Shown here one piece after another: positions 7,327 through 55,076 of a DNA stretch of 64,000 nt. The notes under the pieces were generated by a model. It was not told the DNA's origin. It saw nothing but the letters and a program-made list of their open reading frames with translations, and did not search any database. Made by a program: the position numbers and the translations under genes. Numbering within the stretch: the stretch's first letter is position 1; every line of letters begins with the position of its first letter. Source of the stretch: a virus (lineage: Duplodnaviria; Caudoviricetes); the IMG/VR virus record IMGVR_UViG_3300019371_000256, positions 8,224 through 72,223 of that record, one strand, 5' to 3'.

Positions 7327-8733
7327 ATGATTAAGTATTTTACGGTATATGGTCTATTTGGAAAGTTTAAAAATGAAATAGTTTTTAATGAAAAAGAAAA
7401 AATCACTTTATTAATTGGACCAAATGGATGTGGAAAAACTACTACATTAAAAATACTAAAATGTGTTTTTATGGATACTCTAAAAGAATTATGGAGATTT
7501 GACTTTGAGAAAATTGAAATAGGGATTGAAAATTCAATCATCAGGATTGAGACAGATAAGGAGTATCCCTATTTACAAAAAAAAATGAATAGAAACAACA
7601 AGACCTTCTCGATTCATGGCGTATTTAAAATTTTTTTGAATGATAAACCTATGGAATATGTATATTCTAGAAATACAGATAAGTATTTAGAAAGAAATTA
7701 TATAAAAAATCATTACTATGAAGATGAGATTAGTGAAATTACGAAATTTAATCCATATATTGAAAGGAGTATAATAAAGGAAGAATATAATGATACTTCT
7801 GCAGCAATTGAGTTGAATTTTCCTGAAGAAATAAAAGTACTATTAGAAAAAGTTAAAATCGATTTTGTTTCAACTAATAGATTACTAAAGATGGATATAG
7901 ACGAAAATATTCCTTTACGTGAATTGAGAAATCGTTTTCGCTATGAAAATATGGTTGAAGTATATTCAAATGAATTAGTTAAAATGATTAAAGATACATT
8001 ATCTGAATATGCTAATATATCACAAAAATTAGATGAAGCTTTTCCGGGAAAAATATTTGAAGCTTTAAAAAATAATATATATTATGATGAAGATAAAGAA
8101 TTAGTAGAAAAAAAAATTGAGGAAATTAATACTCTAAGAGAAAAACATATTAAAACGGGTATACTTGAGAGCAATGAAACTACAAAATACATTACAGATA
8201 GTATTGATACTGTTGATTCTAAAACATTGCCTATATTAAAGGTTTATTATAAAGATACAGAAGAAAAATTAAAATCTCTCAATGATTTGTCTGACCGTAT
8301 TTTATTGTTTATTGATTTGGTAAATAGAAAATTAATGTATGGTAAGCAGCTTATTATAACAAAAGAAAAAGGAATTCAAATAACAGATGAAAAAGGAATA
8401 CAAATAACAGAAGAAAAAGGAATACAAATAACAAAAGAAAAAGGAATTCAAATAACAGATAGAAAGAAGATAATAGAACTTTCCCAATTATCCTCTGGAG
8501 AGCAACAAGAGATAGTTTTACTGTATCGGCTTATATTTTCGTCAAATGAAAATCAGTTAATCTTAATTGACGAACCTGAAATTTCATTGCATGTAGCATG
8601 GCAGAGACAATTTGTTGATGACTTAAAGAAGATTATTGAATTAAATAAAATGAATATATTAATTGCTACACACTCACCTCAGATATTAAATGATTATTGG
8701 AATCTAACAGTAAAATTGGGTGAGGTAGAATAG
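7327..8733 (+). CDS. ariA: ABC/AAA_21-type ATPase, PARIS AriA-like
   Basis: Walker A GPNGCGKTT, signature LSSGEQQ, Walker B LILIDEPE, H-loop ATHSP; directly upstream of a DUF4435 gene. Confidence 0.8.
   Translation: MIKYFTVYGLFGKFKNEIVFNEKEKITLLIGPNGCGKTTTLKILKCVFMDTLKELWRFDFEKIEIGIENSIIRIETDKEYPYLQKKMNRNNKTFSIHGVFKIFLNDKPMEYVYSRNTDKYLERNYIKNHYYEDEISEITKFNPYIERSIIKEEYNDTSAAIELNFPEEIKVLLEKVKIDFVSTNRLLKMDIDENIPLRELRNRFRYENMVEVYSNELVKMIKDTLSEYANISQKLDEAFPGKIFEALKNNIYYDEDKELVEKKIEEINTLREKHIKTGILESNETTKYITDSIDTVDSKTLPILKVYYKDTEEKLKSLNDLSDRILLFIDLVNRKLMYGKQLIITKEKGIQITDEKGIQITEEKGIQITKEKGIQITDRKKIIELSQLSSGEQQEIVLLYRLIFSSNENQLILIDEPEISLHVAWQRQFVDDLKKIIELNKMNILIATHSPQILNDYWNLTVKLGEVE
8356..8460 (+). 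repeat. In-frame 24-bp tandem repeat (about 4.4 copies, IT[KDE]EKGIQ) in the ATPase
   Basis: ATAACA(A/G)A(A/T)GAAAAAGGAAT(T/A)CAA units at 8356, 8380, 8404, 8428 and a partial unit at 8452. Confidence 0.95.
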
Positions 8734-36799: not shown

Positions 36800-37618
36800 A
36801 TGGCTGATTTTGAAATTGAAAAAGAGTATAGGGAACAACTGCGGAAATTAGAAACAACAGATCCTGCCCATGCTGACCTATTTAATTCAACGTTTTCAAC
36901 ATTAATAAATAATGATGCATACCTCAACGAGCAGAATAACAAAATCAAACAACCAGAATTTGATGATTCTGGCAGCGTAGATGAAATAAAAGACTTCCCA
37001 TCATTTTTATCATCTATGGTATCTAAGATGAGTATATTTAAGTTTTTTTCAGATTTGAAAGCTGGATTAAAATTTGTATTACATACAGGGCAAATAGTCA
37101 ATAACTGTGTTACGGACCGGTCAGACCTTCCAGGTTCGGCACATAATGATAAGGTTTTGATGGATAAATATTTGGCGTTAAGTAGTGATTTAAGTGAACG
37201 GCTTTTCTTTGGTGCTGGTACTGCGTTGCAAGCAAAGAACGGTACGACGTGGTACAGATTACAAATTAATCCTGATAATTCAACAGGTGTTTTTAAGTCT
37301 ATCGATAATGGTACCACATGGCCAATTTTTGAAAGATTTATAACAGAATCTGGATCAGTTAAAATAAAGAGTGGGTACATAAACATTGCAACGACTGCTT
37401 CTTACGGCAATGAATACCAGGGATCTATGTCCATTCCATCTATCATTTCAGCTTTTAGTCTTACAGATAAAACGGTTTTGACAGTCATTTGTCGGGGAGG
37501 CAATCTTATATCAGATGGTGCAATTGTCCCAAAACATGGTTCAGACGGTTCTATATTTACACTCTCTGGTGCTGTGTCGGGTACATACAGGATGCATTTC
37601 GATATACTTTATAAATAA
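36800..37618 (+). CDS. Tail fibre: constant N-terminus (36800-37180) plus the currently expressed cassette 1 (37181-37618)
   Basis: LETTDPAHADLFN..LINND N-terminal fibre motif; crossover site encodes LSSDL. Confidence 0.85.
   Translation: MADFEIEKEYREQLRKLETTDPAHADLFNSTFSTLINNDAYLNEQNNKIKQPEFDDSGSVDEIKDFPSFLSSMVSKMSIFKFFSDLKAGLKFVLHTGQIVNNCVTDRSDLPGSAHNDKVLMDKYLALSSDLSERLFFGAGTALQAKNGTTWYRLQINPDNSTGVFKSIDNGTTWPIFERFITESGSVKIKSGYINIATTASYGNEYQGSMSIPSIISAFSLTDKTVLTVICRGGNLISDGAIVPKHGSDGSIFTLSGAVSGTYRMHFDILYK
37180..37192 (+). repeat. Shufflon crossover site A (AAGTAGTGATTTA)
   Basis: In frame within the fibre gene (S-S-D-L). Confidence 0.85.
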
Positions 37619-37625
37619 TGATTAA

Positions 37626-37886
37626 TTAAATCCATGACCTCCACTGATTTCCCCAGCGCATACGATGTTTAAAGTCATTATTCCAGTCAAAGAATAGCTG
37701 GATACCACTCGGACCATTATTAAATATGATGATAATTCCATCTTTCCCCGTTGGCGTTTTTGTACTTCCGTCATTTCGTATGTCAATAGTAGCAATTTGC
37801 GTCTCCCGTAAATTATCCAGAGTTATAAGTGAACCATCTCCAATGGAATAGTTATTATATGGGAGGATGCTCGTTAAATCACTACT
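37626..37886 (-). other. Silent tail-fibre C-terminal cassette 2 (86 aa, SSDLTSILPYNN...RMRWGNQWRSWI), absent from the ORF track
   Basis: Open frame from site B to TAA, no start codon or RBS; knob-like C-terminus ending W-x-x-W. Confidence 0.85.
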
Positions 37887-37887
37887 T
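37875..37887 (-). repeat. Shufflon crossover site B (AAGTAGTGATTTA on the - strand)
   Basis: Identical to site A, inverted. Confidence 0.85.
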
Positions 37888-37982
37888 TATTAAAAAGATG
37901 GTAATAAACAAAATATTGTAATATTTTCCTTTTAAGTCTATAATTAAAAATGGATAAATAATCTGTATAGGGGGAATTATGT

Positions 37983-38867
37983 ATGTTTAAAAAGAAAAAT
38001 ACGATAGGGTTTATAATCGGAGCATTAGCAATAATTACTGTAGCAATAACTAACAACACGAATAGTTATGCAAAAAGTGATTTTGCCGTAACAACAAGGG
38101 ATGAATCTATTGAATATAATGGAGTTACATATAAAAGAATTCAAGTTGATGGTGGAGATTTATCAGGTTCAAGGCAACCTAATGTGGCGGTAGATGTTGG
38201 GTATGGGGATAGAACATATTGGGCGTTAACAAATGAGCATAGTCAGCTTGTGTATGTAATAGCTGACAAAATCACCTTGCAAGATGAAAACACAGAACAA
38301 GTTACTTCTGAGGGACGTTATTATAGTGATGAGGCAAAAGTACCTGGCACTGAAAGGTCAGACTTAGATGAAGGACATGTCATAGCAGATAGTCTTGGTG
38401 GAGTTTCGAATGCATACAATATAACACCACAAGATAGCACTTTAAATCGCCATGGAGATCAAGCCTATATGGAGAAAGTGATTCGTGATGCAGGTGGTTG
38501 TGAACATTTCATAGCTACTATCACATATCCAGATACTTCAACTCAAATTCCGTCACATTATCATTATGAATATATACTCAAAGGGAATGCGGTTGTAGAT
38601 GATTTTGATAATATAAATCCTGACGAAGTTAATAAAGCACAAGCAGATAAACAACAAAAAGAATCAAATGTAACAAGTGGAAATAATAATTCTAGTGAAT
38701 CTAGTATAAATGAACAAGAGGAACTGAAAAAGATAGATACTAATGGCAATGGTAAAGTTACAATAGCCGAAGCAAAAGCAGCTGGATACAAAATGCCAAT
38801 CTATTCAACTCATTGGTTGTATAAATATATGGATGACCGAGATGGAGATGGTATGGTAGGAGAATAA
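37983..38867 (+). CDS. Secreted DNA/RNA non-specific endonuclease (streptodornase-like) with a C-terminal Ca-binding-like motif
   Basis: Signal-peptide-like N-terminus; DEGHVIADSLGG, NITPQ..TLNR; DTNGNGKVT and DRDGDG. Confidence 0.85.
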   Translation: MFKKKNTIGFIIGALAIITVAITNNTNSYAKSDFAVTTRDESIEYNGVTYKRIQVDGGDLSGSRQPNVAVDVGYGDRTYWALTNEHSQLVYVIADKITLQDENTEQVTSEGRYYSDEAKVPGTERSDLDEGHVIADSLGGVSNAYNITPQDSTLNRHGDQAYMEKVIRDAGGCEHFIATITYPDTSTQIPSHYHYEYILKGNAVVDDFDNINPDEVNKAQADKQQKESNVTSGNNNSSESSINEQEELKKIDTNGNGKVTIAEAKAAGYKMPIYSTHWLYKYMDDRDGDGMVGE

Positions 38868-38880
38868 TAGTCATGTTAAT

Positions 38881-38907
38881 AGGAGCCGTAAGGCTCCTGT
38901 TTTTTTA
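38881..38907 (+). terminator. Terminator after the DNase gene
   Basis: AGGAGCC-GTAA-GGCTCCT followed by a T-run. Confidence 0.8.
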
Positions 38908-38925
38908 TAAAGAAAGGAGTTCTTA

Positions 38926-39663
38926 ATGGAAAAAGTTAAAATAGGAGATAAGGAACTATTCTATGATATCCAAGAGATTCTTCCCATTAATACACATGTT
39001 TTGCGTATCGTTTTTGCTAACTCACTGCCTGCAAGTTACGGAGACATTACTACGTATACAGCTGGGGGAATTGAAGGAGTTACGCTTACTGGTTACGATA
39101 CAGTTTATCGTGATGAGGGCAAGACAGTTTATTTAAGCAATGATAAAAGTGTTTATATACCAGTGGAAACCTCTACCGGGCCTATGGATCCACCGGAACC
39201 ACATTCCCCCACTATGAAGGAACTAAAGGCATCAAAGCTTAGGGAAATATCGGCCGCCTGTGAAAAGTCAATCTATGCAGGAGTAGATGTTAATTTAGCT
39301 GATGGAGTAATAGAACATTTTTCCCTTACTGAACACGATCAGCTCAATTTGTTCGGAAAACAAATCCAGGTGTCAGCAGGTGTAGAGAAAATAGAATACC
39401 ATTCAGATGGTATGCCATGCCGATATTATAATGCTGCTGATATGCAGACTATAATTTCGGCAGCTATGTGGCATGTATCTTACCATACTACATATTGTAA
39501 TGCACTTAATATATGGATATCCGGGATTGAGCAAGCAGGGGATCTGGAAACTATTTCCTATGGGGTGGAAGTTCCCGAGGCTTACCAATCGGACGTACTT
39601 AAAGCATATTTTATACAGAAGGCTGCCATGACGGAAGGAGAAAGAGATGAAACAGCAAGCTAA
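38926..39663 (+). CDS. Tail-fibre-associated phage protein (DUF4376-like C-terminus)
   Basis: EHFSLTEHDQLN, YHSDG.PCRYY, SYHTTY.N. Confidence 0.7.
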   Translation: MEKVKIGDKELFYDIQEILPINTHVLRIVFANSLPASYGDITTYTAGGIEGVTLTGYDTVYRDEGKTVYLSNDKSVYIPVETSTGPMDPPEPHSPTMKELKASKLREISAACEKSIYAGVDVNLADGVIEHFSLTEHDQLNLFGKQIQVSAGVEKIEYHSDGMPCRYYNAADMQTIISAAMWHVSYHTTYCNALNIWISGIEQAGDLETISYGVEVPEAYQSDVLKAYFIQKAAMTEGERDETAS

Positions 39664-40063
39664 ATACATATTTTTATTAGTGTCCGGTGGATTTATGTAC
39701 AGCATTATAGAAATTTTATATCGGGGGTATACCCACTGGACCATGTTTATTTTGGGCGGTTTATGTTTTATATGTCTAGGGTTAATTAATGAGTTGATTC
39801 CTTGGAGTACGCCACTCTGGAAGCAGATGCTTATTGGTATGGCTATAATTACATGCTTGGAGTTTATAACTGGGTGTATAGTCAATATATGGCTTGGGTG
39901 GGGCATTTGGGATTACAGTAATTTGCCAGGTAATATATTTGGCCAGATTTGTCCTCAGTTCACTTTCTTATGGTTTTGGATAAGCGCTGCCGGGATAATA
40001 TTAGACGATTGGCTTAGATATTGGCTTTTTGAAGAAGAACGGCCACATTATAAATTAATATAG
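39647..40063 (+). CDS. Multi-pass membrane protein (putative ABC-permease-like family common in such prophages)
   Basis: IEILYRGYTHWTMF.LGG, LEFITG.IVN, WDYSNLPGN..GQIC. Confidence 0.75.
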   Translation: MKQQAKYIFLLVSGGFMYSIIEILYRGYTHWTMFILGGLCFICLGLINELIPWSTPLWKQMLIGMAIITCLEFITGCIVNIWLGWGIWDYSNLPGNIFGQICPQFTFLWFWISAAGIILDDWLRYWLFEEERPHYKLI

Positions 40064-40078
40064 GAGGATAAGGTTACG

Positions 40079-40384
40079 TTGACTTTTTGGGATTATGTAA
40101 AAGAGTCTTGGCCGGGATGGGTGTGTTCAGCAGCTGTCCCGGCCATCATTTATTTATATACACAGGTTATGGCCAGCCGTAATGGCGTAAGAGCCCTTTT
40201 GAGAGCAGAAATAATAAGAGTGTATAACAAGTATCATGATGATTTAAAGTATTGTCCAATTTATGTTAAACAATCCATGGAGGATATTTATAAACAGTAT
40301 CATGCTCTGAAAGGTAATGGAGTTGGTACAAAGCTTTATGAAGAAATTATGGAATTACCAACAGAAAAAGAGGAGGAAAATTAA
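40079..40384 (+). CDS. Holin-associated / hemolysin-like small membrane protein
   Basis: One N-terminal TM; ALLRAEI, YHALKGNG.GT. Confidence 0.65.
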   Translation: MTFWDYVKESWPGWVCSAAVPAIIYLYTQVMASRNGVRALLRAEIIRVYNKYHDDLKYCPIYVKQSMEDIYKQYHALKGNGVGTKLYEEIMELPTEKEEEN

Positions 40385-40588
40385 ATGAACAATGAAAAGA
40401 TTTTAAAGTGGGTAAGAGCTGCAGGGGTAAGAGCAGTTAAGACAATGGCGCAGACGGCCATTGCAACCATTGGGACTACAGCGGTAATGTCTGGGGTAGA
40501 TTGGATTATGGTAGGATCAGCAACGGCACTGGCCGGGATTCTTTCTATACTTACATCGGTGGCTGGGCTACCGGAATTAAAAGATTAA
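40385..40588 (+). CDS. Holin (r1t-like)
   Basis: AAGVRAVKTMAQTA; SILTSVAGLPE. Confidence 0.9.
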   Translation: MNNEKILKWVRAAGVRAVKTMAQTAIATIGTTAVMSGVDWIMVGSATALAGILSILTSVAGLPELKD

Positions 40589-40590
40589 TT

Positions 40591-40609
40591 TGTTGCGACC
40601 GTCGCAACA
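40591..40609. repeat. Palindrome TGTTGCGACCGTCGCAACA (copy 2)
   Basis: Perfect 9-bp arms around one base; related to 17130-17146. Confidence 0.85.
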
Positions 40610-40663
40610 CTATGGACCTGGGACATCCTGGGTCCTTTTTCTATTGAAAGGAAGGGGAATATC

Positions 40664-41536
40664 ATGATTAGTAATTGTGGACATGACGAAAATGGAAAAT
40701 ACACAGGTGGTAAAGCCGGGGATCAGACTGGTGGAGAGTACGCAGTAATTAATTGGTATAACCGTCCATGGGCCTGTGTGTTAAGGTATCCAGATATTAA
40801 TGTAGGGTTAAAGATTGCGGAGATTTCTAAAGCTGCAGCAATTAATAATAACGTGGGTTATGATCAGGGACAGAGACTTACATATTACAACTGCTTACGA
40901 GCTGTAAATTGGGATCCTGCTAAGATCATAACTCCATGTGAGGGTGACTGTAGTGCAACAACGGCAGCAAATGTGATTGCCGCCGGAAATCTATTAGGTT
41001 TTAGTAAGTTAAAATCTATCAATCCATCAAACACTACATCGACATTGCGTAAGGCTCTTGTTGCAGTAGGATTTGAACTTTTGACAGACAGCAAGTACCT
41101 TACAGGTGATAACTATTTGCTTCCGGGAGATATTCCACTATATGATGGACATCACGTAGCAGTTAACCTTGATTATGGATCAGAAGTTAAGCCAGCAGAA
41201 GAGAAGAAATCCGGCTGGATAAAAATAACAGATGGATGGATGTATTATAATGGTGATACCGATTTGCCGGTTCGTAATGATTGGGTAGAGGATCAGAGCA
41301 AGTGGTACTGGTTTAACGCGGCCGGGATCATGGTCACGAATACCTGGTATCAGTATAATGCTGCATGGTATTATTTAGGACCGGATGGGGCTATGTGCCA
41401 GTCACAGCTTGTGGAGAATTCCGGGAAGATTTATGCAGTGGACACAGATGGAAAAATGGTTACAGGTGAAATTTTGTTATCTACTTTGAGCGACGGGACG
41501 CTGCAGTACAAAGGTTTAATAGGAGACGGCAAGTAA
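40664..41536 (+). CDS. Endolysin (NlpC/P60-CHAP-like catalytic domain plus cell-wall-binding repeats)
   Basis: GDCS Cys and GHHVA His; WYWFNAAGIM and WYYLGPDGAM repeats. Confidence 0.85.
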   Translation: MISNCGHDENGKYTGGKAGDQTGGEYAVINWYNRPWACVLRYPDINVGLKIAEISKAAAINNNVGYDQGQRLTYYNCLRAVNWDPAKIITPCEGDCSATTAANVIAAGNLLGFSKLKSINPSNTTSTLRKALVAVGFELLTDSKYLTGDNYLLPGDIPLYDGHHVAVNLDYGSEVKPAEEKKSGWIKITDGWMYYNGDTDLPVRNDWVEDQSKWYWFNAAGIMVTNTWYQYNAAWYYLGPDGAMCQSQLVENSGKIYAVDTDGKMVTGEILLSTLSDGTLQYKGLIGDGK

Positions 41537-41730
41537 TATTACTTTGAACCCAGAACCGGTCATTAACTGTAATGCGCTATGTATGTTTCAAATCATGATG
41601 GGGTGCAGTATATAGGTACATTTTAATTAATGTTGGCGGGCTCTTGTCCTGAGTCCGCCATTAAAAGTACTTTTCAATTTTAGGGTCGTATGGTATTATA
41701 GTTAAGTAGAGTGGCAGAAAGAGAGGCCAC

Positions 41731-41916
41731 ATGAGTAGTAATAATAACTGTCTGAAAGCAATCAATTTAATTCATTTCGATGGCAAATCAATTAGTCTAA
41801 ATAATGTATGTATGTCTCATACAATTTTTCAAGAAAACCAAGTTTTACAAGCAGCAATCTACGGTGATATGATAGTTATAACTTCAGCAATGGAAGAAGA
41901 AAAAGAAAGTAATTAA
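41731..41916 (+). CDS. Small hypothetical accessory protein
   Basis: GAGAGG RBS and an upstream TGGTATTAT -10-like box. Confidence 0.5.
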   Translation: MSSNNNCLKAINLIHFDGKSISLNNVCMSHTIFQENQVLQAAIYGDMIVITSAMEEEKESN

Positions 41917-42040
41917 TTTGTATTATAGCCACTCTACTTAAATTTTACTTTAATATACAAAATTGATTTTTTAAAGTAATAAGATTATAATAAAAAAACG
42001 ATTTTAAACTGAATATCAATTATATAATAATCAAATTTAT

Positions 42041-42730
42041 TTGGAGGAAGTTTATATGGATAAAGAGTTAATTAATACCGAGAATATTGATGAAATATCA
42101 ATAAAAAGAATAATTGATGGTTTAACAGGTTTTATATCTGGAAGTAAGGCAGACTATGCACACTCAGCAAATAGATTATTGAAAAGCCTATTTGCTCATG
42201 ATTTTTTATTTCAGTTACAAAAAGAATGGGATAAATATGTCGATAGAGGTAATATTGACTTAGATTATAAAAAATCAAAGCCATTCTTAAATAGTTTATC
42301 TGAATTAATGGACTATCTTGATACGGATTTACCAAATGATGAGATAGCTCTAACTTTAAAAAAGTTATTCTTTATACCAGCTTTTAAAGACTATTACAAA
42401 GAAGACAAGCTTTTAGCAATTGAATATATGAAAATAATAAGAAAGTTAACGCCAGGTGAAATGGTGGTTTTGTTTACAGCATATAATAATGTTGGAATAA
42501 GTACAGACAGTGCTTCAAAATGGTTGGAAATAATTGCAGAGAAATCCACTCTGAAATATACAGAACTAGTAGAGCTGCATGAAAAGAAATTAATTGATTT
42601 AAATCTGATTACAAAACGTAAATATGAGGATAATAGTGGATTATGGGTTGGAAAATATTCTCGCTTAACAAGTTTGGGGTATAACTTATGTCATTTCATA
42701 AAATTGTATGATGAATTTAATGAGAGATAA
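42041..42730 (+). CDS. Low-GC accessory protein, possibly Abi-alpha/DUF4393-like (C-terminal wHTH)
   Basis: IIRKLTPGEMVVL and RLTSLGYNLC resemble that family; likely start is ATG 42056 after GGAGG. Confidence 0.45.
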   Translation: MEEVYMDKELINTENIDEISIKRIIDGLTGFISGSKADYAHSANRLLKSLFAHDFLFQLQKEWDKYVDRGNIDLDYKKSKPFLNSLSELMDYLDTDLPNDEIALTLKKLFFIPAFKDYYKEDKLLAIEYMKIIRKLTPGEMVVLFTAYNNVGISTDSASKWLEIIAEKSTLKYTELVELHEKKLIDLNLITKRKYEDNSGLWVGKYSRLTSLGYNLCHFIKLYDEFNER

Positions 42731-42813
42731 AAAATTGTATTGAATCCTTATACTAATAATGAAATACAACTTTATTTTTTGGTGGTATTTCATTATTAGT
42801 GTAAGGATTTATA

Positions 42814-43830
42814 TTACGGTACATATTTTCTATGGGCTTCCTGTACGGTGGCTTTGGCAATAGCTGCATAGCACTGCTTTGTTGTGTCCAGTTGGACGTG
42901 CCCTAATTTCTCGGCCACAAGTTCCAGAGGAGCCCCCTTATTAATCATATCTGTGCCAACGGTGCGTCGGAAAACATGAGGCGTTAATTTGACTGCAGCA
43001 AGATCATTGTCTCTATTCTTGATTCGTTTTAATATATTTCTTACTGTGCTACTACTTACACGGTTATGAGGTTTTTGATTTGTTACAAATAAAGCCTGGT
43101 TATTATCGGTACGGCTTTTAAGATACCGTTCTAAATGAACCTTTGCTTGGCCGTTAAAATACACCTCTCTTTCCTTACGTCCTTTTCCGTATACAATGGC
43201 TTTCATATCGGAAAAATCAACATCATTGATATTTAAGCGGCAAAGCTCAGATACCCGTATCCCAGAGGAATATAGTAAATCGCATAATGCTAATTCCATT
43301 TCATTTTTGCAGGCGCAGCGAACCTCTTCCCGCTGTTCAGCTTTAAGGGTCGGACCTATACGACGTTCTACTTTGGTTTCTTTTAGCTTTTTGGCTGGGT
43401 TATCAGGTAGCATATCCTCTTCATATAGCCAACCGAAGAAGCTCCTCATGCATATTAGCTTACTATTATATGTACGATCTTTCCATTTTCGAAAAAGTTT
43501 TCCGTATGCAAGATAACCTTTTAGATCTGAATATGATATTTCAATAATATTTTTATTTATATAATCAAGCATATTTTGAAGATTATTTTTATAATTTGCA
43601 ATACTGGCATCAGTGCATCCGTCAAGCTTCATTTGTATTAGATATTGTCTTAAATATTCTTCCGTACAATCAATTTTGGTAGATAAACCTGTTCTGGCCT
43701 CTTCTTTAATTAATTTATAATTTCCTAAATACATATATATGAGTAATTTTGTTTCGTGTATTTTTTCTGTTTTTATTATCCCTGCTATTTCAAACTGCAA
43801 TACTAAATCATTTATAACATTTTCTTCCAT
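42814..43830 (-). CDS. Tyrosine recombinase (XerD-like); candidate shufflon invertase
   Basis: LYSSGIRVSEL (R), VYGKGRKER (K), TPHVFRRT (HxxR), LGHVQLDTT..Y (H, Y); adjacent to sites C and D. Confidence 0.92.
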   Translation of the reverse strand: MEENVINDLVLQFEIAGIIKTEKIHETKLLIYMYLGNYKLIKEEARTGLSTKIDCTEEYLRQYLIQMKLDGCTDASIANYKNNLQNMLDYINKNIIEISYSDLKGYLAYGKLFRKWKDRTYNSKLICMRSFFGWLYEEDMLPDNPAKKLKETKVERRIGPTLKAEQREEVRCACKNEMELALCDLLYSSGIRVSELCRLNINDVDFSDMKAIVYGKGRKEREVYFNGQAKVHLERYLKSRTDNNQALFVTNQKPHNRVSSSTVRNILKRIKNRDNDLAAVKLTPHVFRRTVGTDMINKGAPLELVAEKLGHVQLDTTKQCYAAIAKATVQEAHRKYVP

Positions 43831-43855
43831 GGTGCACCCCTGTAAACTTATTACA

Positions 43856-43920
43856 GTTAGAATATAACCATTATCGTTATATTAGAGAAAAAGTTAGAAT
43901 ATAACACATTCCGTTATTCC
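43856..43920. promoter_or_regulatory. Two GTTAGAATATAAC-N7-GTTAT boxes upstream of the recombinase
   Basis: 13-bp direct repeat at 43856 and 43893, each forming an imperfect ATAAC-N7-GTTAT palindrome. Confidence 0.55.
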
Positions 43921-43933
43921 GGGATTTTGTTTT

Positions 43934-43946
43934 AAATAGTGATTTA
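43934..43946 (+). repeat. Shufflon crossover site C (AAATAGTGATTTA)
   Basis: 12/13 identical to A and B; in frame (N-S-D-L) with cassette 3. Confidence 0.85.
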
Positions 43947-44468
43947 ATGTATAAAGGTAATGCCAATGATTTAGATACGTTAATCAATGAAGAATACACT
44001 GATAAGGTTATAACAAACAGTTATAATTACTCCTCCACGGGAGTGCCAGAAAACTCAAGCGGATATGTTATTACATACTACAGGACACCTGCCAGCGTAT
44101 TACAAAATTTATATACTTTCACAGGGAACTGTTATACAAGGCGCAGAGACATTAATACAACACCTACATGGGTAAAACTCCCATCAAATGAAGATTTAGA
44201 AAACAAATTATCTACCAATGCTTTTTACATTACGAATATAAAGACTTTAGCTGATTTGTATTCCGCCTATGCCAGTGGTATCATATTTGTTTATAATAGT
44301 ACTGGAAATGTCCCAAGTTATGGTAGTGGAATTATATTACGATGTTCAAACTCTAACTTTAAACTCTTACTTGTAGATGATGATACTGATGCAATGTATC
44401 TATGGTCATTAACGGGTGCGGCTGGAACAGCTCTAATAATTAGTGCGAATAAAACCAAGGTTATTTAA
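43935..44468 (+). other. Silent tail-fibre cassette 3 (177 aa, two knob-like units)
   Basis: NSDLMYKGNANDLD...; no RBS before ATG 43947; NSYNYSSTGVP..YTRR...W pattern. Confidence 0.8.
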
Positions 44469-44475
44469 TGATCAT

Positions 44476-44790
44476 TTATGCTATCATCTTCCAGGCAAGC
44501 CAGCTTAGGTATCCATAAAAATGATTTCTGTAATATACATTGTTCCTTTTGATATCAAACAGTATTTGAACTCCGTGAAAACTTACTTTGGATAAAATAG
44601 GATAAGTGTTGAATGAAAATACGAATACCGCTTCTCCTCCTGTCGCTCCAGAAATGGAAGGACCATTGGTGATATCTAAAACATACGAAAAATAAAATCC
44701 GCTGGTTATAGCATTTAAATCTAAATTCTCAGTATAGGGTGGAGAAATCATTAATTTGGGAAGTAATGTTTGTGCACCTAAATCACTATT
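44476..44790 (-). other. Silent tail-fibre cassette 4 (104 aa)
   Basis: Open frame NSDLGAQTLLPK...DLNAITSGFY...NGP...VYYR...WLAWKMIA. Confidence 0.8.
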
Positions 44791-44791
44791 T
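44779..44791 (-). repeat. Shufflon crossover site D (AAATAGTGATTTA on the - strand)
   Basis: Identical to site C, inverted. Confidence 0.85.
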
Positions 44792-44899: not shown

Positions 44900-45844
44900 A
44901 TGAGTAATCTGTTTGTTTTTGGTAATGGTTTTGATTTGGCTCATGGTTTTGATACAAGCTATGATGATTTTAAAATATGGCTTAGTGAAAAATATGATGA
45001 ATCATCAGATTCGTATGAGTCGTTTCCTAAATACAACACTAATTATAAAAGGTTTGAATCATTTAGTTTTGAAAGCATGTCTTATTTTTTCTATAATCTT
45101 ATTTACAATGTAGTTGGTAGTGATTGGAGACAATTTGAAGCAGCATTGTCAAAACTTGATTGGGTTTCAATAATCGAAAATGAATGTTATGGCAGTAATT
45201 ATAAAGAACGAATGTTCCAAGCTGAGGATATAGCTGTACAAATAAGAGATTTTGCTCACGTTTTAAAAGATAGTCTATTTAAAAGTTGGGCTGAGGAAAT
45301 TGACATTTCACACCCTAAGTCAATTTCAGAAGAACTTATAGGATTGATTGATAATGAACATGATTATTTCTTGAATTTCAATTATACTGATACACTTGAA
45401 AAACACTATAATATCAATAATGTTTGCCATATACACGGACAATCTTCTAAACATGATAGTTTGATCGTGGGACATTCGGGAAAAGATAAAATAGAGTTTG
45501 ATAGCTATTTGACTATTACTTATTCTTACATTCGACAGATTTATGAAGATTATCGAAAAGATACTAAAAACATATATAAAAAGCACATGGATTTTTTTAA
45601 TAAATTATATAATAATAATATTACTAATATTTATATACACGGTTTTTCATTTTCAGATGTTGATATGTTTTACTTAAAAAAAATCGCACTAAAACTAGAT
45701 ACTTCTGTGGTACGTATTCATCTACATAGCTATTTAGAGGAGGACTTTGAAGGCTTCAAAAAGAAACTCATTAGATGTGGATTCCATAATATTAACATTA
45801 TACAGTTTAGATTATCTGATATCAATGATGTATGTGAGATATGA
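44900..45844 (+). CDS. abiH: AbiH-family abortive infection protein
   Basis: LFVFGNGFDLAHG..TSY..F, FLNFNYTDTLE, HIHG, IHGFSFSDVD. Confidence 0.85.
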   Translation: MSNLFVFGNGFDLAHGFDTSYDDFKIWLSEKYDESSDSYESFPKYNTNYKRFESFSFESMSYFFYNLIYNVVGSDWRQFEAALSKLDWVSIIENECYGSNYKERMFQAEDIAVQIRDFAHVLKDSLFKSWAEEIDISHPKSISEELIGLIDNEHDYFLNFNYTDTLEKHYNINNVCHIHGQSSKHDSLIVGHSGKDKIEFDSYLTITYSYIRQIYEDYRKDTKNIYKKHMDFFNKLYNNNITNIYIHGFSFSDVDMFYLKKIALKLDTSVVRIHLHSYLEEDFEGFKKKLIRCGFHNINIIQFRLSDINDVCEI

Positions 45845-46017
45845 AACTAGGAGGCGGAAAATTCTGTCTCCTTTTTAATAAAAAATTACTATTTATTTTG
45901 GCAGTCTTAATTTGATATAAGAATTACTTATTGCTATAACCTATTCCGTGATTATATAACATTTTACCATCGGTTTTATCAACTGATGGTAAAGTATAAC
46001 GGAAGGAGCAATTACAT

Positions 46018-46278
46018 ATGATAAAAATTTTACTCTCTTCAAGGCTAGGTGACCGAAAATGGACACAAGCAGATTTGGCGCGAAAAACAGGTATTCGGCC
46101 AACGACAATTTCGGAGCTGTACCATGAGATGGTAGAAAGAGTAAACTTAGAACATTTGGATCTGATTTGCGAAGCATTAGACTGCGATCTCAGCAACTTA
46201 ATTGTATATGAACCAAATAAAGAGCCAAAAATTGTACATACCATTAATGGGTCACCTAAGCCAAAGGACATAAAGTGA
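46018..46278 (+). CDS. XRE/Cro-C1 HTH transcriptional regulator
   Basis: WTQADLARKTGIRPTTISELY; LDLICEALDC. Confidence 0.9.
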   Translation: MIKILLSSRLGDRKWTQADLARKTGIRPTTISELYHEMVERVNLEHLDLICEALDCDLSNLIVYEPNKEPKIVHTINGSPKPKDIK

Positions 46279-46357: not shown

Positions 46358-46561
46358 GGTGACACCCAAATGGCACCCATATGTTGAAAATGCTATTGAT
46401 ATTGTACGGAATGAGCGGTTAAATTGAACGTATTATAGCATATGTGTACGCTAACGATTACCGGTCAATATTGAGTTTGAATAAAAAATTTGAGCCCGCA
46501 AAGCCTTATAAAATAAGGATTTGTGGGCTCTCTTTATGTCGTTTGGTACTATTTTGGTATT
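46358..46561. other. Putative att junction: core ATTGAGTTTGAATAA (46470-46484) with arm-like repeats on both sides
   Basis: Core reads I-E-F-E-stop like the 3' end of guaA; GACACCCAAATGGCACCCAT on the left; hairpin 46492-46530 and TTTGGTACTATTTTGGTATT on the right. Confidence 0.55.
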
Positions 46562-47621: not shown

Positions 47622-49112
47622 TTGGAGGATACAACGTTGATAACAGGCGAAGTGAGAAATAAGATAGATAAAATATGGACAGACATGTGGGCAGGAGGAG
47701 TAACGAATCCTTTGACAGTAATTGAACAGATTACATATCTGATGTTTATTCGCTCTTTGGATGAAAAAGAATTAGAGAATGAAAGCTTTGAAGCACTGGC
47801 AAGAGAAAAGATGGAAAAAATCTTTCCACAAGATGAAAATGGTCAATCCATGCGATGGAGCAGATTCAAAGATAAAGACGCCAGAGAAATATTTGAAATT
47901 ATTGGACAAAAGGTATTTCCATTTATTAAAAGTTTGAATGGTAATAATGCATCCGCATTCTCTAGATATATGGAAAATGCGATGTTTATGATTCCTACAC
48001 CACAAATTTTGCAGAAGATCATTACTGGATTGGAAGATTTGTACGAGCATGATTTGACAGGGCTTGATATGCAAGGTGATCTCTACGAATATATGCTGGA
48101 CAAACTTGCTACCGCGGGGCAAAATGGTCAGTTTCGTACACCAAAGCATATAAGAGAACTGATGGTGCAATTGGTAAATCCAACACCAGATGATACCATC
48201 TGTGATCCGGCTTGTGGAACAGCGGGATTCTTAGTATCGGCATCTGAATATATCAGAAAGAACTTTGAAGGGACTATGACAAGTGAGCAATGGGAGCATT
48301 TTGACAAAGGAGCATTTTCGGGATTTGATACGGACACAACAATGCTTCGTATCTCTGCAATGAATCTGATGCTTCATTCCATTAGTAATCCTGATATTGA
48401 TTACAAAGATAGTGTATCAAAACAGAATGAGATTATTTCAAAATATACGGTGTGCCTTGCAAATCCACCATTTGCAGGAACTGTAGATTCAGAGAGTATT
48501 AATGACAATCTGAAAGCAATCTGTAGTACCAAAAAGACAGAGCTTCTATTTGTGGCATTATTCCTTCGTATGCTAAAAAAGGGTGGAAGATGTGCATGTA
48601 TCGTACCAGATGGAGTTTTATTTGGTAATTCAAAAGCTCATAAAGAGTTAAGAAGAGAACTTGTTGAAAATCAACATTTACAAGCAATCATATCTATGCC
48701 GAGTGGAGTATTTAAGCCATATGCAGGGGTATCAACCGCAGTTTTGGTATTTACAAAGACAGATGATGGTGGAACGGATAAAGTCTGGTTCTATGATATG
48801 AAAGCGGATGGAAAGAGTCTGGACGATAAACGTCAGGATACGGATAAAAATGATATTCCTGATATTTTAGAACGCTGGAATCATTTAGAATTAGAAACGG
48901 ACAGAGTAAAAACAGAACAATCCTTTTTTGTAACAAAGAAGGAGATTGAGGAAAATGAATATGATCTGTCGATTAATAAGTATAAAGAAGTAGTCTATGA
49001 AAAGGTAGAGTACGATTCATCAGAAGTGATTATGGAACGAATTGATAAAATTGATGAAGAAATTGTTGTACTGAAAGCGGAATTGAAAACATTATTAAAT
49101 TTAGATTTGTAG
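47622..49112 (+). CDS. hsdM: Type I R-M methyltransferase subunit
   Basis: GQFRTP, DPACGTAGFL, NPPF; intact. Confidence 0.95.
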   Translation: MEDTTLITGEVRNKIDKIWTDMWAGGVTNPLTVIEQITYLMFIRSLDEKELENESFEALAREKMEKIFPQDENGQSMRWSRFKDKDAREIFEIIGQKVFPFIKSLNGNNASAFSRYMENAMFMIPTPQILQKIITGLEDLYEHDLTGLDMQGDLYEYMLDKLATAGQNGQFRTPKHIRELMVQLVNPTPDDTICDPACGTAGFLVSASEYIRKNFEGTMTSEQWEHFDKGAFSGFDTDTTMLRISAMNLMLHSISNPDIDYKDSVSKQNEIISKYTVCLANPPFAGTVDSESINDNLKAICSTKKTELLFVALFLRMLKKGGRCACIVPDGVLFGNSKAHKELRRELVENQHLQAIISMPSGVFKPYAGVSTAVLVFTKTDDGGTDKVWFYDMKADGKSLDDKRQDTDKNDIPDILERWNHLELETDRVKTEQSFFVTKKEIEENEYDLSINKYKEVVYEKVEYDSSEVIMERIDKIDEEIVVLKAELKTLLNLDL

Positions 49113-49114
49113 GG

Positions 49115-50269
49115 ATGATTGATATGGAGATTAAAAAACTTAAAGATATAAATGAATATTCTAGCCAAAGTGTAAATCCTTCAAAATCGCCAGATATTGT
49201 ATTTGAAGTTTATAGTGTACCAAGTCATGCAGACAACAAACCAGAGTATCTTCGCGGTGATGAAATTGGTTCAACAAAAGTAGTTATTGAAGAAGGTGAT
49301 ATTTTGCTATGTAAAATAAATCCAAGGATTAATAGAGTCTGGGTTGTAGATAAATCGTCTGAACATTTGAGTGTTGCTTCATCTGAGTGGATAGTAGTTA
49401 GAAGTAAAGAAAATAATCCAGAGTATTTGGCGTGGTATTTTAGATCTGATGGATTTAAAACTCGTATGAATAGTGGTTTGACTGGAATTGGTGGATCATT
49501 AACACGAGCACAGCCAAAGCGAGTAGCAGATTATCCAGTTCCAATTAGAGAAAGAAAAGAACAAGATGAAATAGTATTAGTTTTAAATAAAGTAAATAAA
49601 ATAATAGATAGCAGAAAAGAACAGTTAGAACAGATGGATAACCTAATCAAATCCCGATTTGTCGAGATGTTTGGGGATCCTTTAAGTAATCCAATGGGCT
49701 GGGAAGAAGTTGTTATTACAGAGCTGTGCGAGAAAATATGCGGTGGTGGTACACCTTCAAAATCTCATCCAGAGTATTTCGTGGGGCGTATTCCTTGGGT
49801 GTCACCGAAAGATATGAAATCTATGGTTATTAGAGATAGTCAAGATCATATAACTGAAGAGGCCATTAAGAATAGCTCAACGAAGATTATTCCAGAAAAC
49901 TCGGTACTTATGGTAATAAGGAGTGGTATTTTAAAACATACACTTCCTGTTGCTATTAATGCAGTGCCTGTGACTATTAACCAAGATATGAAAGCTTTTA
50001 TTCCAGGGAAAAAAATACTTACAACATTTTTGATGAACTACTTTAAAGCGATAGAACCAGATGTATTAAGCGGTGTAAGAGGAGTAACGGCTGATAATAT
50101 CGATTTCAAAGATTTTCAAAAAAGACTGGTAATTTTACCACCAATTGAAATTCAGAAGCAATTTGCCAACTTCGTCCAACAAGTCAACAAATTGAAAATT
50201 GAAGTACAGAAATCATTGGATGAAGCGCAGGTATTGTTTGATTCGTTGATGCAAGAGTATTTTGAGTGA
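49115..50269 (+). CDS. hsdS: Type I R-M specificity subunit
   Basis: Two TRDs; SRFVEMFGDP, GGGTPS, PPIEIQKQFA. Confidence 0.92.
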   Translation: MIDMEIKKLKDINEYSSQSVNPSKSPDIVFEVYSVPSHADNKPEYLRGDEIGSTKVVIEEGDILLCKINPRINRVWVVDKSSEHLSVASSEWIVVRSKENNPEYLAWYFRSDGFKTRMNSGLTGIGGSLTRAQPKRVADYPVPIRERKEQDEIVLVLNKVNKIIDSRKEQLEQMDNLIKSRFVEMFGDPLSNPMGWEEVVITELCEKICGGGTPSKSHPEYFVGRIPWVSPKDMKSMVIRDSQDHITEEAIKNSSTKIIPENSVLMVIRSGILKHTLPVAINAVPVTINQDMKAFIPGKKILTTFLMNYFKAIEPDVLSGVRGVTADNIDFKDFQKRLVILPPIEIQKQFANFVQQVNKLKIEVQKSLDEAQVLFDSLMQEYFE

Positions 50270-50291
50270 TAAGATAAGGAAAGCTATTGCC

Positions 50292-51697
50292 ATGACAAAT
50301 GAATATGAAGAACAGAATGCATATAAAAAAGCATGAAATTGTTTGTACGATTTTGTAAAGATATGAATATCACAACTAAGGAGCAACTTTCAAACTTTAC
50401 TTTCGAAGAAATTCCTTCTGAATATAAATATAAATATAAATATGGAGCCTCTGATGAAATCAGAGCTTCTGATGATCCTGATAATACACAAATAATAAAT
50501 GCTATTTATATAATTTTATGGGGAGAATTTTTTGATATAAGAGATAAGAAAGATGTTGGTTCTTAGTCTGATAGTAAAAAAATAGAAGGTAGTCAGTCAT
50601 CATACAGAGGCGACACAATGAATAGTTTTTGTTCTATGTTTGGAAGTGATGATACAGGATGGAATAGAATGAAGCATATTCTAGGTGTGGAAATCGATAA
50701 TGACTGGTCTGATATAATAAAATTTAGAAAAATTTATCATACATTAGGAAATTTTTTACTTATTCCAAATAGAAAAAATGTAAATAGAGTAAAAGGTACC
50801 TCTGGCAGACTAACAGACAGTTTTGAGACACTTTTATCAAATGCATATATGTACTATAATGAAAAAGAAAATGGAACAAATAAGCTTATTATGTGTGGTT
50901 ATAGAAAGGTTTTTGAAGAAAATATAGAATACAAGAATACATATAATGAAGATTTTTTGTTTAAATTAAAATATTTTATTTGCAAGATTATTATTATAAT
51001 GAAGGAAAGCCAACAGTCAAGTTTAAATTTAGTTTCAGAAGGGAAAAAAGGCTTAGCTGATTATGTATCTACAAATTTGAATACTGATGAATATTATACA
51101 CGAAGTCATTTGCAAAAATTGGATATCATACAGACGGTTGGTTCGGCTTCTTGGTTAGGCATAATTAATGACAAAGATTTATTTCAGGAAAGCTTGGATT
51201 GGTTTCGAGGATATATAAATTTTATTTGTGAAAAGATAGGATATGAGTTGCTTTACCAAATGATCGACAATTGTAGAAGTATAAATGAAAATAAAGATTC
51301 ACAATTAGAAGCGTCATTGTGTTATGGAACATGTATGTATATTTGTTCATTTATTGAAAAAATATTAAAAATAATATACATAGAACTAAAAAGAGAAATA
51401 GAATATATTCCAATTGAAAATATAACTTTAGGGGAATTGCTATCAGACGGGAATTCATTGTATGCGGAAATGTTAGGAGAATATCAATTAAAGCATTTAA
51501 GATATTTTCTATTGACAGACGGCGATAAAAAAATTGGTACAAATTATCGTAATTCACTGGCACATTATAGTTCAATTACTTCTGAGAATATTAATATGTT
51601 TCTTGTTGGAAAACTAATGTTTCTTTTTACAAATATAATAACATCATTTTTTCATTACTTTTTTATGAAACAAAGTGAAGAAAATATAGATAATTAG
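50292..51697 (+). pseudogene. Interrupted nuclease-like + HEPN (DUF4209-like) gene between hsdS and hsdR
   Basis: ORFs 50333-50566 and 50618-51697 are in frame across TAG 50564-50566; possible frameshift near 50330; YRGDTMNSF, HTLGNFLLIP and C-terminal NYRNSLAH (RxxxxH). Confidence 0.65.
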
Positions 51698-51707
51698 GGG
51701 AGGATAT

Positions 51708-54700
51708 ATGTCAAACTTCGAATTCTTAACATCAAAAACAGAATATGAGCTTTTTGCAGTAGCGTGCGTTGAGGCGGAGAAGGTCTTGACATCATCACCT
51801 GCCATGAGTGCAGTAGGAGCTAGAAAAGCATTAGAACTTGCTGTGAAATGGGTATATTCCGCTGATAACTCAATTTCTATCCCGTACAAAGATAACTTAC
51901 AATCATTGATTCATGAACCAAGTTTTCGTTTTGCCTTGGATAGTAAGACATGGGGCAAGATGCCATTTATCATTAAATTAGGTAATTTGTCAGTACATAC
52001 GGATAAGAAGGTGTCAAAAAGTGACGCTGTTTTATCATTACAAGGTTTGTTTGAATTTGTAGAGTGGATTGATTACTGTTACGGAAATGATTATCAGGAA
52101 CGTAACTTTGATGAAAAACTGATTCCAGGTGAAAAAGTCGCTGTTGATGTATCAAAAATCAAAGAGCAGGAGAGTTTACTTTCTGAAAAGGAAAGTGAAA
52201 TCAAAGCCTTAAGAGAGAAAATTGAGGCGATGTCTGCTACCTATACTGCTGAAAAAGGGCAGCATAAAGAAGAAAGAACTTTTACTGCGAAAGATTTATC
52301 GGAGTTTAAGACGAGAAAAAGATACATTGATGTAGATTTAAAATTGTTAGGTTGGGATTTTGACCATGATGTAAAAGAAGAATTTGAAGTACAAAATATG
52401 GATGGAAAATCAGGTCAGATGTGATATGCTGACTATGTTTTGTTTGGCAAAGACGGTCTTCCATTGGCGATTATAGAAGCAAAGAGGACAAGCAAAGACC
52501 CGAATATCGGAAGGCAGCAGGTTTTGCTTTATGCCAAGTCTTTAGAAGAGCGTTATGGACGCCGTCCTATGATGTTTACCACGAATGGGTTTGAAACCTA
52601 TTTCTGGGATGATGAAAGCTATCCTCAGAGAAAAGTCAGCAGTATTTTTTCCAAAAATGATTTGCAGAAGTTGATGAATCGAAGACAAGAGAGAAAAGAT
52701 TTATCAACCATTCGCATAGATGATAAGATTACCGATCGCTATTATCAGAAAGAAGCGATCAGAGCAGTATGTGACAGTTTGGTGCAGGGGCATAGAAAAA
52801 ATCTTCTCGTGATGGCAACTGGTACAGGCAAGACCAGAACCGCTTCCAGTTTGACAGATGTATTGTCAAGAGGGGGCTATGTTACCAACGTTTTATTTCT
52901 TGCCGACAGAACGGCATTAGTAAAACAGGCAAAAGATGATTTTAAAAATTATCTTCCAGATATGAGCCTTTGTAATTTGCTGTCCAATAAGGAGGATAAG
53001 AATGCAAGAATCATTTTTTCTACCTATCCAACTATGTTAAATGTCATTGATTCGGAAAAGACAGAGGATGGACAGCGATTATTTTCTCCATCCCATTTTG
53101 ATCTGATCATAGTAGATGAAGCACATAGAAGTATCTTTAAGAAATATCGTACCATTTTTGAATACTTTGATTCAATTGTTGTAGGATTAACTGCTACGCC
53201 AAAAACAGATGTCGATAGAAATACCTATGATTTTTTTGAAATGGAACATGGGGTTCCGACCTATGCATATGACTATGAAACTGCTGTGAATCATGATTAT
53301 GTGCTGGTGCCATATTTTAACATTGAAACATCAACGAAATTCTTAGAGGAAGGAATTTCATACGAAGAGTTGGATGAAAAAGATAAAGAACGTTACGAAG
53401 ATGATTTCGGTGATGATGAAGGAAATATGCCAGAATTTGTGCCTTCACCTACCATGAATAAATTTGTATTTAACGAAAAGACAGTGGATTTAGTGTTGCA
53501 GGATTTGATGGAAAATGGAATCAAGGTTGAGGGCGGAGATCGAATTGGAAAAACAATCATTTTTGCTCAGAACAAGACTCATGCTGAATTTATTTTAGAA
53601 CGATTCAATAAATTATATCCAAAGCTGAAAGGTGGATTTGCAAAGCGCATTACTTGCGAAGATACCTACGCCCAGTCTGTCATTGATGAATTCAAGATTG
53701 CGAATAAGCCACCATATATTGCAGTTTCTGTCGATATGATGGATACCGGTATCGATGTACCAGAAGTAGTCAATCTTGTATTCTTTAAGAAAGTGCGCTC
53801 AAAGACAAAGTTCTGGCAGATGATAGGACGTGGAACCAGACTGTGCAAAGACCAGACTTTTGTTGACAGACAGGATGGAGAGTATACAGATAAAAAGAGA
53901 TTTTATATTTTTGATTACTGTGGAAATTTTGAGTATTTCCGTGAAAATAAAGAAGGTATTGAAGTAAAAGATACAGAAAGTTTGAGCGAAAAGAGTTTTA
54001 GCAAAAGAGTCCGATTGATACAAAATCTTCAATCATCAGATTTCTTAGGAACGGAATACCAGAACTGGAGAAGTGAGCTTGTAAGTACTGTGCTACAGCA
54101 AGTACAGTCACTCAACAAAGAACTGGTTGCTGTACACATGCAACTTCGTCATGTGGAAAAATTCGAAAAGCAAGAAGCATTTACTTGTATCTCAGAACAG
54201 GATTATCATGATTTGTCCAGGCATGTAGCACCATTGGTAACGATGGATGATAAAGATGAGTATGCAAAGCGATTTGATAATCTGATGTACGGCTTGATGA
54301 TTGCTCAGATGGAGATGTTACCAGGATTTAAGAAAGCGAAAAATCAGGTCTACACATTGATGGGAGCATTGGAACAAAAAGCAATTATTCCTAAGATTAA
54401 AGAAAAACTTTCTTTGATTCAGACGGTAACAACAGATGAGTTCTGGGCTTCTGGTGATATTTTGCTTTTTGAAAAGATTCGAGAGGAATTAAGAGATTTG
54501 ATTAAACTTACAGTGGATGAGGGCACTGGTAAACGCCCGATTATGACAAGTCTTGCAGATCCTATTCTATCTAGAAAAGAAGGCGATATATTAGATGCAG
54601 CATATGATTTTGAAGATTACCGGTTAAAAGTGAATCGATACATAGAACAACATAAAGATCATATTGCAATCTGGAAGCTTCGAAATAATGTAAAACTGGA

Positions 54701-55076
54701 ATCGGGAGACTATCAGGCACTCGAAAGCATCTTTACAAAAGAACTGGGCGATGAAGAAGATTACAAACGAGAGTTCGGAGATACACCATTTGGTCTTCTT
54801 ATCCGTAAGATAGCAAAGCTTGAGCATGAAGCTGCGATGAAAGCATTTTCTAAGTTTATCAATGATGAATCATTGAACCAACAGCAGATTGTTTTTGTGA
54901 AAAAGATTGTGGATTATGTGGAGCAGAATGGATACATAGAAAATATAACGGAACTGATGAAACCGCCGTTTGATAAACCAATGAGCTTTGTGAAGCTGTT
55001 TGATAGTAAGAGGCAGGCTGAGATTGTGAAGTTGGTGAATGAGATTAAGGAAAATGCTGTGGAAGTGGCGGGGTAA
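51708..55076 (+). pseudogene. hsdR: Type I R-M restriction subunit interrupted by an in-frame TGA (52422-52424)
   Basis: ...GQM-TGA-YADYVLFGKDGLPLAIIEAKR; MATGTGKT, DEAH, QMIGRGTR motifs otherwise intact. Confidence 0.9.

Follow-up and report, generated by a model that had tools for sequence, protein, structure and literature searches.

The question raised by the locus described here is how one tail-fibre gene could draw on C-terminal cassettes of which some lie beside it and others 6 kb away. The locus is found in a 64,000-nucleotide stretch (hereafter the window; positions 8,224 to 72,223 of IMG/VR record IMGVR_UViG_3300019371_000256), at the end of the tail module of a myovirus prophage (sheath, baseplate J, Mu gp48-like and tail-collar genes), and the fibre gene comes after the baseplate J, Mu gp48-like and tail-collar genes. 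Judged from named homologues, the host would be a Lachnospiraceae-type gut bacterium. We consider it very likely that this temperate phage carries a multi-cassette tail-fibre shufflon with long-range exchange.

From the sequence, it is clear that the 13-bp site AARTAGTGATTTA is present in four exact copies, site A (37180–37192, plus strand), site B (37875–37887, minus), site C (43934–43946, plus) and site D (44779–44791, minus), compared with 0.012–0.024 matches expected in the window (Markov orders 1–5). The 4.5-Mb genome holds five matches in total, four of them inside one 7.6-kb stretch, and no open frame starts at the fifth. The frame read from base 2 of each site encodes [S/N]SDL and opens 145, 86, 177 and 104 codons at A, B, C and D, respectively. 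Only site A is within a gene with a ribosome-binding site; sites B and D have an in-frame stop immediately upstream, and site C is preceded by 10 codons without a start. The first-pass annotation had described the four sites, the shared frame, the four lengths, three cassettes without a ribosome-binding site and the absence of one of them (c2) from the list of open reading frames (ORFs), and all of these descriptions proved correct. Across 41 sites, positions −1 to 11 are fixed save for R/Y/R positions and the flank is variable, an asymmetry that partly reflects the search pattern.

The expressed fibre gene (36800–37618, plus strand, 272 amino acids) consists of a 127-codon constant part and cassette c1 (37181–37618, plus, 145 amino acids); its homologues share the N-terminal part and differ beyond the site. 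Cassette c1 meets the silent cassette c2 (37626–37886, minus, 86 amino acids, with a homologue of 54% amino acid identity on contig C35) tail to tail at junction J1 (37616–37627). The second pair is formed by two silent cassettes, c3 (43935–44468, plus, 177 amino acids) and c4 (44476–44790, minus, 104 amino acids), which meet at junction J2 (44466–44477). The order is constant fibre part, A, c1/c2, B, nuclease moron, terminator, DUF4376 gene, holin, endolysin, 229-aa gene, recombinase (minus strand), C, c3/c4, D, AbiH, helix-turn-helix (HTH) gene and attR. The shufflon would have two parts 6 kb apart, an expression pair (A/B) on one side of the lysis genes and a distal storage pair (C/D) on the other. 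The 338-aa recombinase is predicted to recombine AART-AGTG-ATTTA sites and so to join any of the four tips to the constant fibre of 127 residues, giving fibres of 272, 213, 304 or 231 amino acids with c1, c2, c3 or c4. A single A–B flip would replace c1 by c2, and bringing c3 or c4 into the fibre would require two crossovers: A–D then B–C would exchange whole pairs, and A–D then junction–junction, through a second site class, would exchange one cassette and re-pair the remainder. After a single crossover, the lysis block would point against late transcription, a state that is unlikely to be propagated.

Among close relatives (93–96% identical over the tail module), we found the window's cassettes at other sites, also across the 6-kb split, and L021, L046 and L047 all depart from the window at site A. 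In L021/L317 (93–96% nucleotide identity), the same constant region is fused at A to c4, the cassette that is silent in the window (97.8% nucleotide identity). The alleles switch inside the site in this fusion, and since the G at site position 3 goes with the left flank, the crossover must have fallen in the last 10 bases. L046 shares the split layout of the window and carries c1 silent at site C (87.5% nucleotide identity), and the expressed tip at A in L047 is homologous to the C-terminal half of c3. In G028, the c1/c2 pair (99.6% over the pair) occupies the distal slot beside the HTH gene and attR, with c1 silent at site D. L323, which is G028:C2:13800–16900, is a 3-kb remnant of the same prophage made up of an integrase 3′ end, a moron, a c2/c1 pair, the HTH gene and attR. 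The split layout, its four sites intact and its cassettes open, is retained in three full-length relatives. The permuted cassette orders for which the first-pass annotation proposed to survey homologous prophages therefore exist (L021/L317, L046, L047, G028). Its multi-state switching by inversion has to be modified, in that single A–D or B–C inversions were never seen in split lineages, only net double events.

The lysis middle block is inverted in none of the four lineages that retain it (window, L046, L047, L317), and exchange between the pairs therefore needs two crossovers. An A–D crossover combined with a junction–junction crossover would yield the L317 and L046 states relative to the window, with one cassette moved, a new partner and the middle forward. 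In L046, only a hairpin and a ribosome-binding site are present between B and the DUF4376 gene, and the lysis block is probably transcribed by read-through, so that single A–D or B–C inversions would be selected against. Compact relatives, which use other recombinase clades than the window, do show rearranged forms: L062 and L050/L070 are 99.9% identical with the pairs swapped and the recombinase unmoved, and L136 and L128 are 98% identical with the recombinase-bearing middle inverted. Such inverted states were counted in 6 of 37 compact relatives, and the idea that the middle never inverts anywhere in the family was rejected. Moreover, the ends of 16 of 109 fibre contigs fall within 100 bp of site A, compared with 0–2 in the next bins. 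Rearrangement activity at the level of the family is clear from these sequence comparisons. Forms without, or with a doubled, recombinase plus one pair occur among compact relatives L062–L067, and may be real deletions or assembly paths through mixed isoforms. The 77-kb relatives L307, L309, L310 and L313 have a third cassette slot just before the portal gene, ~20–25 kb from the fibre; a tiny ORF there begins with ATG and shares its frame with one of the sites.

The tail-to-tail junctions carry AAAT-[GA]AT[CT]-ATTT, that is, the arms of the 5′ site around another spacer. J2 is a candidate 3′ site with the palindromic spacer TGATCA and one mismatch, and J1 a degenerate candidate with the spacer TGATTA and two mismatches; in run X3, an extra A at J2 restores the consensus. 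Within one mismatch, the motif is present at 15 of 18 junctions. By comparison, it occurs at 1 of 80 convergent junctions of the host, at 1 of 17 AT-rich ones and at 0 of 23 junctions of the YSD/xSD group, and 500 shuffles that preserve the stops never gave more than 2 of 18. Held-out sets gave 8 of 20 (other recombinase clades) and 3 of 6 (junctions found later), against a background of 0.2% per 41 nucleotides. A scan with the exact junction 14-mer was swamped by unrelated matches and was not used. Where homologous cassettes have been re-paired, homology runs through the motif and is lost within 2 bp in five of seven cases and is lost at the left arm in the other two, and in L147, from another group, the re-pairing break lies within a related palindrome. 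Since the junctions are short, breakpoint position alone is weak evidence, and conservation of the motif is stronger. The YSD-site subgroup (L049, L050, L057) has a different palindromic junction, with the spacer TCATGA, and re-pairing occurs there.

Tyrosine recombinases require matching spacers, and junctions would therefore pair only with junctions. In engineered recombinase-mediated cassette exchange, sites with the same arms and different spacers on the two sides of a cassette allow a clean swap by two crossovers; that arrangement is man-made, and its counterpart in the window is read from sequence only. We lean slightly towards a functional second site class at the cassette 3′ ends that allows single-cassette exchange, a probable class that the first-pass annotation, correct on the four 5′ sites, had missed. 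The fuller proposal, in which one recombinase serves two mutually orthogonal classes of site, alike in arms but different in spacer, one at the 5′ and one at the 3′ end of each cassette, and performs a natural cassette exchange with slots 6 kb to tens of kb off while the intervening genes are left uninverted, appears to us evenly poised.

Several observations weigh against the explanation by a shufflon with long-range exchange and a second site class. The motif was defined on the set in which it was first counted (about 4–5 lineages), making that count partly circular; its core, T[GA]AT[CT]A, can also be read as two stop codons side by side; the motif is absent from both junctions of G106; and J1 and J2 of the window differ at one spacer base. 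No alternative junction was found in the source run, where the locus is one unbroken contig of depth 16, and a second run of the same strain shows the same state at A, both being read from contigs, which drop rare forms. In four runs, no joint between sites was found, but all are contigs and hence give no evidence of absence. The six L317-lineage contigs shown, of nine on record, share one A/B state, and since most cassettes are not shared between close relatives, the moves could have happened long ago or from phage to phage.

The points on the motif bear on the possibility, which we hold to be doubtful although substantial, that the shufflon is real and its junction motif is an inherited stop overlap or a crossover-free binding site instead of a recombination site, re-pairing there being the only break that spares both cassettes. 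The two abutting stops in the core would fit this explanation, as would the shortness of the junctions, which obliges an intact re-pairing to break there, and the absence of the motif in G106 and in the YSD/xSD group. However, most of the 18 junctions have no more than one cassette that stops at the hexamer, and several have none; the AAA/TTT flanks equal the arms of the 5′ site; and the motif is common to unrelated cassettes, to different phages and to the held-out sets.

A second alternative keeps the enzyme and the sites and changes the route, the distal cassettes arriving through intermolecular double crossovers (between replicating copies or co-infecting relatives) or through circle excision and reintegration, and not through two successive inversions. 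In favour of such a route are the never-inverted middle block of the split relatives, the two copies of one cassette in G105 (84% identical), the loss or doubling of the recombinase plus a pair in compact L063, L065, L066 and L064, and the 97.8% identity of c4 between the window and L317, where the fibre N-part and the recombinase are 91–94% identical. Against these stand the inversions that do occur in the family (6 of 37 compact relatives; L136 versus L128) and the assembly paths through mixed isoforms that may account for the lost and doubled forms, and we regard this route as rather unlikely in place of inversion.

A distal pair left over, inert, from a formerly compact shufflon, with relatives differing by ordinary mosaic recombination between phages, would agree with the lack of switching in the contigs of the strain and with the widely varying cassette sets of relatives; this is highly improbable given the three full-length relatives described above, the breakpoints at 13-bp sites, which are too short for homologous recombination, and a recombinase that is intact and 83–94% identical at the DNA level.

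The recombinase itself (42814–43830, minus strand) is a XerC/D-like tyrosine recombinase of 338 amino acids, separate from the 456-aa integrase that the prophage encodes. The first-pass annotation had placed it next to site C and called it complete; its completeness is confirmed by a full-length match to PF00589 (E 8e-33) and by intact catalytic residues R192, K216, H285, R288, H311 and Y321. Its alignment with XerA/XerD runs to the C-terminal end, and the enzyme is arm-less. In a quick tree it falls into a well-supported clade of 16, in which L046, L002/L156 and L041 have a recombinase that starts within about 100 bp of a site. Its closest homologues (60–70%) are in late-early regions, far from any fibre gene. 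We rejected the notion that these phages are without sites, as same-arm sites were found at their fibre genes. Phages of the clade have sites with the same arms and the spacers AGCA or GGCG, mostly split or dispersed and up to tens of kb from the enzyme, and the reversed-pattern control returned 0. Two or three dispersed slots with same-arm sites are present in G103, G104, G105 and G109, and a same-arm pair 19 kb from the recombinase in G101; the G102 contig breaks off exactly where its site A ends, and the four split sites of G106 have a third spacer. No same-arm site was found in the G108 fragment, and no close recombinase in 400 family genomes. The split or dispersed layout is thus a trait of the recombinase clade, and we infer the pairing of recombinase and sites by association. 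Action of another enzyme on the sites (the 456-aa integrase or a host Xer-like protein), with the adjoining recombinase incidental, might be suspected from the remote position of the closest homologues, but it is most unlikely in view of the same-arm sites at the fibre genes of those very phages, the clade members that start about 100 bp or less from a site, and an att core without resemblance to the 13-bp sites.

Upstream of the recombinase are two operator-like boxes, TATAAC-N7-GTTAT (43861–43920), conserved in L046 and L317, and a related box (TATAAC-N7-GT, 45935–45955) precedes a Cro/C1-type HTH gene (46018–46278, plus strand), a candidate regulator of the recombinase that is also present in L046 and G028. 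In L046, L317 and run X3, the arms of the boxes are conserved and the spacers variable; crossover sites were rejected as an interpretation because the spacers differ between copies and relatives. Other clade members have LexA-like boxes in their place, and the box pattern had no match in the viral contigs searched.

Turning to what is being exchanged, the structural model of c4 (predicted local distance difference test (pLDDT) 72) has fibres or tailspikes of pyocins and phages as all of its top eight structural matches, with moderate VIA Z scores of 5.4–6.9, and its top BFVD match is a tail fibre (E 7e-4). The model thus supports a fold like that of phage and pyocin fibre knobs for c4, which is the expressed tip in L021/L317 and whose homologue ends the full-length fibre P0131. 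The structure prediction proposed in the first-pass annotation was thus informative for this cassette; the single-sequence model of the whole fibre reached a pLDDT of only 36, and Atlas leads for c1–c3 were under 0.9. No Pfam, PHROG or NCBIfam family was found for any of the four cassettes, no match in a PDB sequence search with the c4 alignment and no longer homologue of c3. H-type lectin domains occur among the tips of related fibres, and tip exchange would be expected to switch host range. In P0134, a c4-like domain is followed by an internal NSDL and then a second domain, which suggests that tips may be stackable through the site.

As for the surroundings, the 3′ end of guaA repeats at C5:377581 and at 46470–46484 (plus strand), the probable attR core, and the prophage is therefore ~58 kb long, with sites C and D inside. 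A moron for a non-specific nuclease/EF-hand protein (37983–38867, plus), directed away from B, is absent in L046 and replaced in L047. It is followed by a terminator-like hairpin (38878–38901, plus), similar in L046 and L047, and by the middle block (38926–41536, plus) of a DUF4376 tail protein, 138-aa and 101-aa genes, an r1t-type holin and an endolysin. The catalytic domain of the endolysin (40664–41536) is exchanged among close relatives, being ELLD here and Amidase_2 in L021/L317. A 28-bp inverted repeat (42743–42809) between the converging 229-aa gene and the recombinase is probably a two-way terminator. An AbiH moron (44900–45844, plus) lies between D and a degenerate direct copy of the site on the minus strand (45882–45894); G028 has no AbiH moron and shows two tandem site copies 17 bp apart at that place, and the recombinase may capture morons such as this one, bracketed by site copies. 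Variable morons adjoin sites B, C or D and are always directed away from the site (window 37983 and 44900; L047:1305; L317:15993–16769; L046:15982; L323:10733). Just past attR (47622–55076), the translations include type I restriction-modification-like genes, remnants of which are at the same place in G028. The source genome (G000) has two further cassette pairs (C20:102037–102889 and C35:530–1280) with NSNL-type sites and junction-like motifs, no recombinase near them and an SOS-like box at C35; contigs C20 and C35 both break within the same downstream gene, and the pairs are possible substrates in trans.

Of the known systems, the Rin shufflon of Bifidobacterium prophages (PMC6109161), also found in Eggerthella clade 1 prophages (PMC8778435), is the closest. 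Likened by description, both have a phage-encoded, arm-less XerD-like tyrosine recombinase beside a separate prophage integrase, and a short asymmetric site inside the receptor-binding gene and before each start-less variable C-terminus. The window has the in-frame fibre site, the start-less C-termini headed by it, the arm-less recombinase and, among relatives, breakpoints at the sites. The Rin cassette array, however, is unbroken, lies between the constant gene and the recombinase and has a single site class, whereas the window has pairs 6 kb apart around lysis genes, a site that differs from rix, another host group and a candidate second site class, and it is not Rin in the strict sense. The first-pass annotation did not name Rin; among the analogues it gave, the R64 shufflon works alike. 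R64 Rci/sfx (PMC11852207) shares the tyrosine recombinase, tail-to-tail pairs between inverted sites, and a site whose core and right arm are conserved and whose left flank varies, but its target is the pilus adhesin PilV, its array is contiguous with fixed segment pairs, and Rci has an extra C-terminal domain. An R64-type pilV target on an IncI plasmid was not found, the target here being a phage fibre gene. Its other analogues, Gin and Cin, fall away: Mu Gin, P1 Cin and the multi-cassette p15B Min (summarised in PMC6109161) also switch tail-fibre C-termini by inversion, but they are contiguous systems of serine invertases, and membership was rejected as the window recombinase is of the tyrosine family. 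The BV01-like Phocaeicola phage shufflon (PMC13596623, a preprint) likewise belongs to a gut temperate phage with several cassettes, its activity having been seen in reads, but is a compact 1.7-kb locus with a different site and a Bacteroidota host. One tyrosine recombinase with two repeat types and modules on both sides of its gene has a precedent in pneumococcal tvr/TvrR (PMC6265443), where hsdS domains are shuffled by excision and reintegration at direct repeats. The two repeats are not presented there as a single pair of arms around different spacers. A literature search that covered few subscription papers returned no description of this shufflon family, the split layout or the 3′ site class.

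Taken together, gut Lachnospiraceae phages of this type would be able to vary their receptor-binding tips beyond a two-state flip. Since storage slots and enzyme need not adjoin the fibre gene, searches based on adjacency miss such loci; the family is common, with more than 100 loci found, and causes breaks in metagenome assemblies where the fibre gene lies. If the junction is indeed a second site, the system would be a natural counterpart of engineered cassette exchange, and its recombinase one with at least four natural spacer variants.

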